Of a stretch of DNA of 19,386 nt, positions 650-7,342 are shown one piece after another. The position numbers were made by a program, and so were the translations under genes. The notes below the pieces were generated by a model, which was given only the letters and a program-made list of their open reading frames with translations, ran no database searches and was not told the origin of the DNA. Source of the DNA: a virus; UHGV virus genome UHGV-0074610. One strand, given 5' to 3'. Positions within the stretch are counted from its first letter, which is position 1. Every line of letters starts with the position of its first letter.

Positions 650-725
650 TATCGCTTTAAGGTAGTCGATCAAGTTGTCTGATGGTGCTAAACTTTCAGC
701 CTTTCAGAATTGACTGATTTTTCTC

Positions 726-1088
726 ATGTTAAAACTTTTTGCTAAGTACACATCGATTGGCGTTCTCAACACACTCATTCACTGGGTTATGTTTGGCATA
801 TGTATATACGGATTATCTACAAGCCAAGCGTTAGCTAACTTTGCTGGGTTCGTCGTAGCCGTTAGTTTCAGCTTTTACGCTAATGCGCGGTTTACGTTTA
901 AAGCATCAACATCTACGCTTCGCTACATGCTTTACGTTGGCTTTATGGGAACGTTGAGCGCTGCTGTTGGTTGGGCAGCTGATATGTGTGGATTACCTCC
1001 GATTATTACGCTTGTGGCATTCTCAGCCATTAGTCTCGTATGTGGCTTTTTCTATTCTAAGTTCATTGTCTTTAGGGAAGCGAAATGA
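726..1088 (+). CDS. gtrA: GtrA, bactoprenol-linked glucose flippase (GtrA family small membrane protein)
   Basis: 120-aa product [20 protein letters not shown]...[12 protein letters not shown]...KFTFKAS...[11 protein letters not shown] is near-identical in pattern to recalled E. coli YfdG/GtrA proteins, with four hydrophobic segments. Stop overlaps the gtrB start (ATGA at 1085-1088). Confidence 0.9.
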
Positions 1089-2005
1089 AGATATCTTTAG
1101 TTGTTCCTGTCTATAACGAAGAAGATACAATACCAATTTTCTATAAAACTGTTCGTGATTTTGAGGAGTTAAAAAAATATGAAATTGAAATTGTTTTTAT
1201 AAACGACGGAAGTAAAGATGGCACTGAGTCAATTATAAATTCAATTGCCTCATGGGATCCTCTTGTGGTCGCATTATCGTTCACTCGTAACTTTGGTAAA
1301 GAGCCGGCATTGTTCGCAGGACTAGATCACGCAACTGGTGACGCAATAATTCCTATTGATGTAGATTTGCAAGACCCTATTGAAGTCATTCCTCATTTGA
1401 TTGATAAATGGCAAGCTGGCGCTGACATGGTTCTTGCTAAAAGAACGGATCGCTCAACAGATAGCAGACTTAAGCGCAAATCTGCTGAGTGGTTCTACAA
1501 ACTTCATAATAAAATTAGCTCACCAAAAATTGAAGAAAATGTTGGGGACTTTCGCCTCATGTCGCGAGGGGTTGTGGAGAACATAAAACTACTTCCAGAA
1601 CGTAACTTGTTCATGAAAGGAGTCCTTAGTTGGGTCGGTGGAAAAACTGATGTTGTAGAATATGCGCGCGCCGAACGTGTAGCAGGGGACTCAAAATTTA
1701 ATGGATGGAAATTGTGGAATCTAGCACTTGAGGGAATAACTAGCTTCTCAACTTTTCCATTGAGAATGTGGACATACATCGGCCTTATCGTTGCTGGAAT
1801 TTCATTTTTCTATGGAATCTGGTTAATACTTGATACCTTGGCGTTTGGAAATCCGGTCAGAGGATACCCATCAATACTTGTCTCTATCTTATTCTTGGGT
1901 GGAGTGCAATTGATTGGTGTTGGCGTTCTTGGTGAATACATTGGGCGTATATATATCGAAGTTAAAGCTAGACCGAAGTACATTATTAAGGGAAATAAAA
2001 AATAA
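1085..2005 (+). CDS. gtrB: GtrB, bactoprenol (undecaprenyl-phosphate) glucosyltransferase, GT2 family
   Basis: 306-aa product begins [17 protein letters not shown], has the GT2 DxD region ([10 protein letters not shown]) and two C-terminal hydrophobic helices, as in GtrB/YfdH. Sits between gtrA and the type-specific gene; stop/start overlap TAATG at 2003-2007. Confidence 0.9.
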
Positions 2006-3432
2006 TGAATGTTAAAAGCATTTCTTTAAACAAACACACCATAGTTTATTCATGTTTGTTTTTCGCATTTTTGATACAATTTATCAACCTGCCAGCTTAT
2101 GATGATGATTTGAATAGGTTTGGCTGGAATTTTATGAAGCTTGCATACCAAGGGCGAGTTGTTACCGAGCTTTACTACTCGTCTTTATATTTATTCCAAC
2201 AATCCTTACCTGTTAACATTTACACAGCCAACCTTATTATCATTGGCGTCGTAATGTTTTTTACCGCTAAGTATTTTTATGAGTCGCTACAAATTCATAA
2301 CCTCCCAATACTTACCGTAGCGCTTGTAATGATACACCCATTTATAATTGAAAACCTTTCATATCATATAGATTCTATAGGGATGGGGATGGCGCTATGC
2401 ATAGCAGTATTCGCATCTGTTTTTGTATGTAAAAACAAAGTAATTTACTATCTACTTCCTGTTACTTTATTGACATTAGCATCCGCGATGTACCAATCCT
2501 CAATTTCAGTGTACTGTTCCACTGTTGTATTGGTATCAACTGTGTTAAGCCTATCTGATAAGACCAGCACCAGGGATGTTATAATCTACATAACAAAGAA
2601 AATTGTCATTTTCTTATTCTCCATCTTAGGCGCTTTTATTTTATATAAAATCTTCGTAACCTCACCTTATATACAAGACAAATCAAAGTTAATACCATTT
2701 ACTGGTGAATTCATTCATAAGTTAAGCTTAAATGTAAGCAGGGTTATTGATGTAATCTATAGCAGCCTTAATGATCTACAAATTCTAATCATTGCATCAA
2801 TGGTGATGATATACTACGTATCGTCAATTATTTACATAATAAGCAAGAAACCTGGAGCATTAAAAACTTTAATGTCTCTATTCGGACCACTAATTAGTGC
2901 TGCATTGATATTCTTGCCAACCGTTTTATTTGAAAACACAGTAATGATGCCTAGAATATTTATGTCATTTGGTGCTTGCATTGCAATATTATCACTGACA
3001 AATGTCAATGCAATGGCATGCAAGACTTCGGCTATACTTTCATGCATATTACTTTCGACAGTAGTAATGACAGCCTCAGCTCATGTGAGTTCTGTAAAAT
3101 ACATTTATGGATACATGAACAGGGTTCTTACGTCGATTGACTACAACGCAAGAATTGACAATCAGAAGTCTTCGTTAATAAAAATTAAATTCCTTAACAG
3201 GGTCAGATATCCAGGAGAAGCTCTTACAAATTCAAATGCATTCCCTATAGTAGGCAAAATTAATAAGATTAATTTTGCATGGGAGTGGTCTATGGGAGTT
3301 TACATGAATTATTTTAATTACAACTTTAAAATTGTGTCGAATGCAAAAACAGACGGAAAAACATTTGTAACCGAGGAGCGAGTTTATAGAATGTATAAAA
3401 AGGATGATGTTTACCTAATAGAGTTTAAGTAA
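2005..3432 (+). CDS. serotype-specific O-antigen glucosyltransferase, GtrC-type polytopic membrane protein
   Basis: 475-aa very hydrophobic multi-TM protein immediately downstream of gtrAB, with an acidic YDDD motif in the first predicted periplasmic loop and a C-terminal soluble region. Assigned by synteny and topology; GtrC proteins share little sequence similarity with one another, so no sequence-level confirmation. Confidence 0.7.
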   Translation: MNVKSISLNKHTIVYSCLFFAFLIQFINLPAYDDDLNRFGWNFMKLAYQGRVVTELYYSSLYLFQQSLPVNIYTANLIIIGVVMFFTAKYFYESLQIHNLPILTVALVMIHPFIIENLSYHIDSIGMGMALCIAVFASVFVCKNKVIYYLLPVTLLTLASAMYQSSISVYCSTVVLVSTVLSLSDKTSTRDVIIYITKKIVIFLFSILGAFILYKIFVTSPYIQDKSKLIPFTGEFIHKLSLNVSRVIDVIYSSLNDLQILIIASMVMIYYVSSIIYIISKKPGALKTLMSLFGPLISAALIFLPTVLFENTVMMPRIFMSFGACIAILSLTNVNAMACKTSAILSCILLSTVVMTASAHVSSVKYIYGYMNRVLTSIDYNARIDNQKSSLIKIKFLNRVRYPGEALTNSNAFPIVGKINKINFAWEWSMGVYMNYFNYNFKIVSNAKTDGKTFVTEERVYRMYKKDDVYLIEFK

Positions 3433-7287: not shown

Positions 7288-7304
7288 ATGGGCCTCATAA
7301 ACGA

Positions 7305-7324
7305 AAACCCACCGAAGTGGGTTT
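7305..7324 (-). terminator. stem-loop with UUCG tetraloop (minus-strand sense) between tip-protein gene and tail fiber gene
   Basis: 8-bp perfect stem AAACCCAC / GTGGGTTT with 4-nt loop; on the minus-strand transcript the loop is UUCG and the stem is followed by the U-rich stretch UUCGUUUAU. Sits 18 nt upstream of the tail fiber ATG. Confidence 0.35.
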
Positions 7325-7342
7325 GTTAAGATGTTTTTGTGA

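Follow-up and report, generated by a model that had tools for sequence, protein, structure and literature searches.

A probable serotype-conversion and receptor-recognition locus, assembled piecewise, at the end of a lambda/HK97-like Escherichia coli prophage

The gtr operon and convergent tailspike gene

The window analysed here, a 19,386-nucleotide stretch of the UHGV virus genome UHGV-0074610, is 100% identical to prophages of several draft genomes, with GCA_022546295.1 among the carriers; the prophages are integrated beside zinT and yodB, with a host flank 99% identical to Escherichia coli. Positions 700-7330 constitute the end of the prophage and comprise an operon of gtr genes on the plus strand and a convergent tailspike gene on the minus strand, with a humD/umuD'-like gene pair lying divergently to the left of gtrA. 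Upstream of the spike gene, the minus strand displays tipJ, a lambda-like tail set and then HK97-type head-tail genes and the portal gene. The tipJ gene (7343..10060, minus strand), which is the first of the conserved backbone, encodes a 905-residue lambda J-like tail tip protein (PF24801 and PF13550; PHROG 469 matched over its full length) presenting 88-94% amino-acid identity to its E. coli relatives. The identities of these genes agree with the first-pass annotation of the sequence, which had put a receptor-binding tail fibre gene beside genes for O-antigen modification on an HK97-portal siphovirus backbone; the gtr cassette described there nevertheless lacked a fourth gene, orf522 (positions 3465-5033), which had been overlooked.

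The first three genes display the organisation of a gtrABC operon, with GtrA first, an overlapping GtrB second and a polytopic, type-specific GtrC third. The gtrA gene (726..1088, plus strand; 120 residues) encodes a small membrane protein of the GtrA family (PF04138, E = 5.7e-14) that is 96.7% identical to the gtrA product of the Shigella flexneri gtrIc cluster (L012) and to those of contigs L014 and L029, while identities to relatives with the same backbone are 79-82.5% (L001, L002 and L004) and 96.7% (L003). It overlaps by four nucleotides gtrB (1085..2005, plus strand; 306 residues), a family-2 glycosyltransferase gene (PF00535, E = 1e-32) that is 85-92% identical to other gtrB genes; GtrB of gtr systems makes undecaprenyl-phosphate-glucose. 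The third gene, gtrC (2005..3432, plus strand; 475 residues), encodes a type-specific transferase of the GtrII family (PF14264, E = 1.2e-17; PHROG 4829 "GtrC-like", E = 2.4e-33). Among 5.8 billion proteins, GtrC has five related clusters, the nearest non-self sequence being 77% identical. A tblastn search of a phage collection returned a weak match in a Hafnia phage as the sole one, and the assignment of this 475-residue protein as a GtrI orthologue was dropped.

The fourth gene, orf522 (3465..5033, plus strand), encodes a 522-residue polytopic membrane protein, a second type-specific transferase that is GtrIc-like. No match was found in Pfam (E<=10), NCBIfam or PHROGs, so the protein was identified through the genomic contexts of its homologues and through its structure. 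Its relatives comprise 13 clusters in the 5.8-billion-protein collection, including P0004, which is 49.5% identical over 522 residues, the full length of orf522. P0004 occupies the gtrC position after gtrA-gtrB in a S. flexneri contig (L012) and is surrounded by an IS (insertion sequence) element, yejO, narP and ccmH, which are the published surroundings of the gtrIc cluster (PMC4924310), and on the basis of this context P0004 was identified as GtrIc. Of the seven GtrIc residues numbered in a chimera study (PMC3259042), four are found in P0004 at the exact positions (F31, H32, N99 and V100) and three at a constant offset of -2 (V381/P382 and V495), which may reflect a small indel or a numbering difference. 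The orf522 protein displays a GT-C fold (a fold of polytopic glycosyltransferases) with one periplasmic loop near the N-terminus, a large one towards the C-terminus and a transmembrane helix at the very end. At E<=1e-30 a profile of its family recovered 34 representatives, a number that rose to 1,244 at E<=1e-10, and sampled distant members presented weak matches to the Pfam families DUF6541, YfhO or PTPS_related, which places the GtrIc-like family as a small branch of a large GT-C group. The GtrIc-like subfamily has so far been found only in Enterobacteriaceae gtr operons; tblastn matches in the phage collection were restricted to 22-24% identity, in unannotated Listeria and Enterococcus phage records, and were not used.

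The tailspike gene (5077..7287, minus strand), which encodes 736 residues, is convergent with the operon and comprises three regions. The N-terminal anchor (residues 1-131; 6895..7287) is of the backbone type, with a GC (guanine plus cytosine) fraction of 0.44-0.46, and contains PF18668 at residues 89-127 (nucleotides 6907-7023; E = 1.1e-18). Residues 1-156 match the "tail protein gp13" of PDB entry 9occ_G (E = 1.8e-32) and the PF18668 region matches the structures of CBA120 TSP1, TSP3 and TSP4, revealing a particle-binding domain of the TSP1/Gp66 type. The receptor-binding region (residues ~100-605; 5480..6990) has only four related clusters among the 5.8 billion proteins, and a PDB search identified no solved relative of the middle part of the spike by sequence; a PHROG match to "glycerophosphodiester phosphodiesterase" at residues 170-451 was not relied on. 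The C-terminal region (residues 649-736 plus the stop codon; 5077..5343) is an intramolecular chaperone of the Peptidase_S74 type (PF13884 at residues 649-703, E = 9.9e-9). Residues T648, S649, D650 and K654 are invariant in an alignment of five homologues, a pattern that fits the S74 cleavage site and Ser-Lys dyad, and the conserved S649 and K654 predict self-cleavage of the spike.

Two hairpins flank the spike gene. The first, at 7305..7324 on the minus strand between tipJ and the spike gene, reads AAACCCAC-TTCG-GTGGGTTT followed by TCGTTT; it is terminator-like, combining a stem of 8 bp with a UUCG loop and a U-rich tail (UUUUCGUUU), and its local fold with flanks has an energy of -11.9 kcal/mol. 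The element, already reported by the first-pass annotation as lying directly upstream of the spike gene, begins 17 nucleotides past the tipJ stop codon and ends ~17 nucleotides ahead of the spike start, and it is the longest-stemmed terminator-like site (eight pairs) in a scan of positions 1-10200. The second (GACGTTACGCC ... GGCGTAACGTC; 5041..5071) separates the convergent gtr operon and spike gene and is a putative separator of their transcripts. A homologous stem (TTACGCC/GGCGTAA) is present at the same place in L022, a prophage with an unrelated backbone; a simple terminator scan had missed this hairpin, whose loop exceeds eight nucleotides.

To the left of the operon, where gtrA on the plus strand and the humD/umuD'-like genes on the minus strand diverge, lies a near-consensus palindrome, CTGTATGTACATACAG (632..647), which is the sole CTGT-N8-ACAG match in the window and which, based on the known LexA consensus, is presumably an SOS operator. 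This divergent region, of 114 bp, must also contain the gtr promoter. Phase-variable gtr promoters of Salmonella contain paired GATC sites together with OxyR sites; no paired GATC was found upstream of gtrA, where positions 500-760 contain a single GATC, at 668, and OxyR half-sites were not searched. The humD/umuD'-like gene itself lies within 50-673 on the minus strand (PHROG 3469, E = 1e-41), and the small gene preceding it, which matches only the first 39 of the 79 positions of PHROG 3893, is probably frameshifted here. In most relatives across genera both genes are located at the prophage end. No recombinase gene was identified in 700-7330 from the open reading frame (ORF) list and family search, and no Rfam RNA family was found across the window.

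Boundaries of homology and composition

Five E. coli prophages (L001-L005) have the same backbone, with tail and head genes 84-91% identical at the nucleotide level and a tape measure protein 97-98% identical. Their homology to the window ends at 6890-6902, around spike codon ~131, in L001, L002, L004 and L005 and at 7133 in L003, while on the left side it ends at ~1966-2016, at or near the end of gtrB. Between these points they contain a gtrC product at most 20% identical to that of the window, a DUF6056 protein (L003) or an acyltransferase (L005), and a different spike body in each case. Extending the comparison to seven relatives with this backbone (L001-L005, L027 and L031), each displays a different modifier and the spike is common only in its N-terminal anchor; identity to GtrC of the window reaches at most 41% where similarity was detected, and none was detected for the modifiers of L003 and L031. 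The closest pair, L002 and L004, is 98-99% identical in tipJ and gtrAB, with gtrC at 50% and spikes that diverge past the anchor. These alignments indicate that the gtr/spike pair occupies an exchange hot spot. The spike of L027 (4940-6926) and L028 (11463-13449), which adjoins a gtrC 41% identical to that of the window, is encoded by two ORFs, one of 394 residues with a PF18668 anchor and an Exo_endo_phos domain of the phosphodiesterase type and one of 266 residues without a family match.

The same types of gene are also found on an unrelated backbone. Loci L022-L025 contain gtrA, gtrB, gtrC (77% amino-acid identity) and the same type of spike, in the same order and orientation, next to tail genes with 55-59% GC that are unrelated to those of the window and include a TipJ analogue only 21% identical. 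When the window is aligned with L022, the humD-like end, gtrA, gtrB and gtrC are 69-85% identical at the nucleotide level; positions 3433-5055, which include orf522, have no counterpart, a 72-bp spacer lying there instead; the S74 part of the spike is 62-72% identical; and identity of 97-100% is confined to 5480-6990, with both flanks diverged. Homology begins at 7017 and none is observed upstream of spike codon ~91. The confinement of near-identity to spike residues ~100-605 identifies the receptor domain alone as the piece most recently exchanged, and residues ~91-131, the PF18668 motif, which are common to both sets of relatives, as the evident crossover joint. In L022 the GC contrast between positions 13797-20537 and 10001-13738 is larger than in the window (tail genes 55-59%, gtrC 32% and spike 39%), so that the module keeps a low GC whatever backbone carries it.

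Receptor domains of this type are also found in other company. In a prophage remnant, L017, the spike has a receptor domain that is 77% identical, and the convergent gene beside it, in the place of gtr genes, is of the Acyl_transf_3 type with 27% GC. Domains 45-47% identical are present in a siphovirus-like contig with its own DNA polymerase (L019) and in an SU10-like podovirus contig, both of which, lacking a nearby modifier gene and, within the stretch covered, an integrase, look lytic. A megablast search with the variable core of the window, 2006-6890, matched none of 5,426 complete E. coli genomes.

Base composition delimits a block similar to that defined by homology. GC is 0.367 (36.7%) in 700-7330 and 0.478 (47.8%) from 7343 to the end of the window, with sliding-window values of 0.32-0.38 over ~2000-6750 and of 0.44-0.52 from 7000 on. 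Maximum-likelihood change points are located at 6801 on the phage side and, on the left, at 1947, at the end of gtrB and within a gradient, defining a sharp low-GC core from ~1950 to ~6800; the 3' end of gtrB is where both the left change point and the homology end (~2006-2016) fall. Gene by gene, GC is 0.42 in gtrA, 0.39 in gtrB, 0.335 in gtrC, 0.342 in orf522, 0.383 in the spike gene and 0.455-0.508 in tail and head genes. The range of 30-35% initially estimated for the gtr cassette is thus accurate for gtrC and orf522 and too low for gtrA and gtrB, which are intermediate between core and backbone. Likewise, the compositional break on the phage side does not coincide with the hairpin at 7305-7324, where it had been placed: the change point at 6801 and the homology end at 6890-6902 lie within the spike gene, whose codons 1-200 (7287-6688) retain the backbone-like GC of 0.44-0.46. 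Relatives L002-L005 and L027 have the hairpin at the equivalent site, where one stem pair differs by a compensatory change from A-U to G-C (CCCAC/GTGGG versus CCCGC/GCGGG), and L022 displays an analogous hairpin and T-run ahead of its spike gene. Conservation among the backbone relatives identifies the hairpin as a terminator-like element of the late tail operon and not as an edge of swapped DNA.

The end points observed in the different relatives (2006-2016, 3433/5055, 5480 and 6890-7017), together with identities that range from 62% to 100% within the block, show on sequence comparison that the block is a mosaic of no fewer than five segments, each with its own history: gtrAB, gtrC, the GtrIc-like gene, and the receptor and chaperone domains of the spike. 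These alignments map the joints to the gtrB/gtrC junction, the intergenic spacer between gtrC and the spike gene, and the PF18668 motif within the spike. The module is held together by position and function, yet it is assembled and exchanged piecewise. The earlier view that 700-7330 is a single foreign cassette, acquired en bloc and bounded by the hairpin on the phage side, is unlikely, although it would account for the recurrence of gtrA, gtrB, a 77%-identical gtrC and the same receptor domain, in conserved order and orientation, in L022-L025, as well as for the simultaneous replacement of gtrC and spike in L002 and L004. It does not accommodate the strongly discontinuous divergence from L022, the presence or absence of orf522 as an indel, the pairing of this spike type with an acyltransferase in L017, boundaries of homology and GC that lie inside the spike gene (6800-7017), or a hairpin conserved among backbone relatives carrying different modules. 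A repeat search found no direct or inverted repeats flanking the block or orf522 and no att-like or IS-like repeats around the module; bounding repeats that would support a cassette were thus not found, and transposition as the mode of exchange was rejected on the same basis. By the test proposed in the first-pass annotation, the swapping of spike and gtr genes as a unit over a conserved backbone is not borne out: in the relatives the two vary independently of each other, although they stay adjacent.

Two carrier genomes contain shortened versions of the prophage. L009 and L010 are identical to the window over 1-8756/9548 and then over 13198/13496-15434, internal deletions having removed the 5' part of tipJ and ~85% of the tape measure gene, of which the start is left, while the gtr operon and spike gene remain 100% identical. 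These deletions are consistent with conversion genes being kept in decaying prophages. At the far end of the window, the final ~50 bases (19334-19386) match a multi-copy sequence found in hundreds of E. coli chromosomes and plasmids, and homology to all related prophages ends at 19357; these bases probably mark the terminus of an insertion sequence that breaks the prophage between its portal and capsid genes.

Proposed function and alternative explanations

The gene identities and exchange patterns described above argue that, with good probability, 700-7330 is the end at which a lambda/HK97-like E. coli prophage, integrated beside yodB, carries its functions of serotype conversion and receptor recognition, and that it is built as a piecewise mosaic. 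In the lysogen, the four-gene operon (gtrA, gtrB, gtrC and the gtrIc-like gene) would make undecaprenyl-phosphate-glucose, which the two periplasm-facing GT-C enzymes would use to add glucose to the O-antigen repeat unit; the two transferases would act at two sites or would add a second glucose onto the first, as in S. flexneri 1c. The convergent tailspike, comprising anchor, receptor domain and self-cleaving S74 chaperone, would be the virion protein recognising the unmodified polysaccharide, and modification would therefore shield the lysogen against this phage and any other that has the same receptor domain. O-antigen glucosylation, recognition of the unmodified form by the spike and protection of the lysogen are inferred from what is known of gtr systems (PMC4413052, PMC3688519, PMC4924310).

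The presence of two type-specific transferases in one operon invites a further proposal. Homology to GtrIc and the GT-C fold of orf522 are evident, and GtrIc adds the second glucose in S. flexneri serotype 1c (PMC4924310); by analogy, a similar second-step role is suggested for orf522. In Pseudocitrobacter and two other contigs (L014 and L029/L030), a relative of orf522 forms a tandem with a GtrII-family gene, the order of the two being reversed, and the recurrence of the pair in both gene orders suggests a functional couple passed among phages. A tentative interpretation, on the whole rather doubtful, is that gtrA-gtrB-gtrC and the gtrIc-like gene form a two-step glucosylation device within a single prophage, in which the GtrII-family enzyme would act first and the GtrIc-like enzyme would extend or complement its product, leading to a diglucosyl group of the kojibiose type or to a doubly glucosylated O-unit. 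Three of the six GtrIc-family contexts speak against it, since in S. flexneri, Enterobacter soli and another E. coli (L012/L016/L076) the gene stands alone after gtrAB, with no partner gtrC in cis, so that sequential two-step glucosylation is just one possibility. If it does operate, the tandem pair would help the lysogen to escape spikes that tolerate a single glucose, and one prophage would do what S. flexneri 1c does only with two separate prophages. A limited literature search found no description of operons with two gtrC-type genes.

To place the locus in a wider context, 45 loci with TipJ relatives were surveyed across Enterobacterales. Their common order is tipJ, a spike gene with a conserved anchor, a variable slot and then, usually, a humD-like gene. 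The slot contains gtrABC in L031 and L032, Acyl_transf_3 genes in L033, L034, L037 (twice), L064, L067 and L073, a Wzy_C-like gene in L042 (15188-16444), a gene for a 797-residue family-2 glycosyltransferase in L053 (16128-18521), DUF6236 in L050, a Caps_synth/GT32-like gene in L060 (15892-16818) and a D-glucuronyl C5-epimerase-like gene in L036 (14789-15823). In this phage family, a receptor-binding protein thus recurrently, though not obligatorily, lies beside a polysaccharide modifier, and the slot appears to offer a broader set of candidate modifiers of surface polysaccharides than gtr and oac.

Several observations nevertheless count against the proposed recognition of O-antigen by the spike, and they would favour a different explanation in which the spike binds a capsule or another surface glycan, not the O-antigen of lipopolysaccharide, and the adjacent gtr genes are simply cargo of a slot at the prophage end. 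A structure model of the spike built from five sequences presents a mean pLDDT (predicted local distance difference test) of 50, with only residues 170-340 at 70-89, and the top Foldseek matches of this low-confidence model are Staphylococcus phage receptor-binding proteins and assorted β-propellers, not β-helices. The receptor domain may tentatively be modelled as a β-propeller and not as the β-helix typical of O-antigen-cleaving tailspikes, so that enzymatic cleavage is not supported. In the survey, ~29 members have a full-length spike, and in about a dozen of them the slot contains no recognisable modifier; in L056 it holds unrelated cargo (an AAA_21/AbiEii-like ATPase gene). Against this explanation, the receptor-domain type adjoins a modifier of the O-antigen type in three independent contexts, the window, L022 and L017 (Acyl_transf_3), and slot cargo across genera is mostly polysaccharide-modifying. 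A capsule or other glycan as receptor is accordingly considered improbable, slightly more so than acquisition as a single cassette.

The low GC of the block, proposed in the first-pass annotation from sampled lines, was confirmed when 700-7330 was compared with the tail and head genes for GC, for GC at third codon positions (GC3) and for codon usage. Blocks of 50 codons have a GC3 of 0.336 within the module, compared with 0.439 in the backbone (Mann-Whitney p = 1.4e-9), and the two also differ in their use of synonymous codons (chi2 = 254.5, 41 degrees of freedom, p = 1e-32). That low GC is a by-product of protein composition, silent on origin, would fit the very low GC at first and second codon positions in gtrC and orf522 (0.31-0.35), as expected of polytopic membrane proteins rich in Ile, Phe, Leu, Lys and Asn, but this explanation is highly improbable and was rejected at synonymous sites, because the amino-acid content of the module under backbone synonymous preferences predicts a GC3 of 0.442, the soluble receptor domain of the spike has the lowest GC3 in the window (0.23-0.34), and homologous receptor domains in L019 and L020 have 47-48% GC. 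The contrast is therefore real and not a membrane-protein artefact. Under the mosaic interpretation, the low-GC pieces would circulate in an AT-rich pool of polysaccharide-specific genes common to phages, and the block would be low in GC without having been acquired in a single event. Counting against the proposal, the relation between a low-GC receptor domain and the presence of a modifier is weak across the family (mean GC difference between receptor domain and tipJ -0.074 with and -0.040 without a modifier, p = 0.052, for classes assigned by hand).

In E. coli and Shigella, modification of O-antigen by prophages alters the serotype, recognition by vaccines and antibodies, and susceptibility to phages. 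The present locus displays the construction of such a module at nucleotide resolution, with a crossover joint in a spike motif, a gtrB/gtrC joint and an add-on slot for a second transferase. Because Pfam, NCBIfam and PHROGs do not detect the GtrIc-like family, its genes are labelled "hypothetical" by annotation pipelines and escape in silico prediction of serotype. The variable core, in turn, is so rare (0 of the 5,426 complete E. coli genomes and very few clusters in 5.8 billion) that it constitutes a clean marker for one conversion type.

Relationship to known conversion systems and tailspikes

The arrangement described here is similar to that of P22, BTP1 and epsilon34 (gtrABC) and of Sf6 (oac), where the modifier is adjacent to and convergent with the receptor-binding gene at the prophage end. 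As in P22-type gtr systems, the conservation of gtrA and gtrB contrasts with a type-specific, highly divergent gtrC, and protection of the lysogen through its O-antigen is expected (PMC4413052, PMC3688519). Unlike the P22-like podoviruses, the window belongs to a lambda/HK97-like siphovirus with TipJ, and its spike contains a PF18668 anchor in place of the P22 head-binding domain. The operon also differs from P22-like operons in comprising four genes, two of which encode type-specific transferases, and in the single GATC upstream of gtrA.

Relationships with S. flexneri 1c are close. Along its whole length, the orf522 protein has 50% identity with the protein that occupies the gtrIc position, and gtrA and gtrB are 96.7% and 91.7% identical, respectively; both systems combine an enzyme of the GtrII family and one of the GtrIc family in one cell. 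In S. flexneri 1c, however, the enzymes are encoded by two separate cryptic prophages, GtrIc leading to a kojibiosyl group (PMC4924310), whereas the window contains a single operon with one gtrAB pair. The YfhO, DUF6541 and PTPS_related GT-C enzymes have the same GT-C fold, while the GtrIc-like subfamily itself has no Pfam model.

The spike resembles other modular tailspikes, such as the CBA120 TSPs, G7C gp66 and S74 proteins of the endosialidase type, in its PF18668 anchor, in its S74 Ser/Lys pair and in a receptor domain common to phages of other types (45-47% identity); receptor domains are known to move between phage genera while anchors stay (PMC10408124). In contrast to the CBA120 and G7C tailspikes, its receptor domain has no solved homologue by sequence, is rare (four clusters) and, according to the low-confidence model, is tentatively a β-propeller. 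Apart from the rare core and the annotation gap, the arrangement is textbook biology: a modifier beside a convergent tailspike (P22, BTP1 and Sf6), a conserved gtrAB with a hypervariable gtrC, and spikes that keep the anchor and swap the receptor domain have all been described. What the locus adds to these systems is a further example on a lambda/HK97-like siphovirus backbone, with a rare receptor domain and an operon containing two type-specific GT-C genes.

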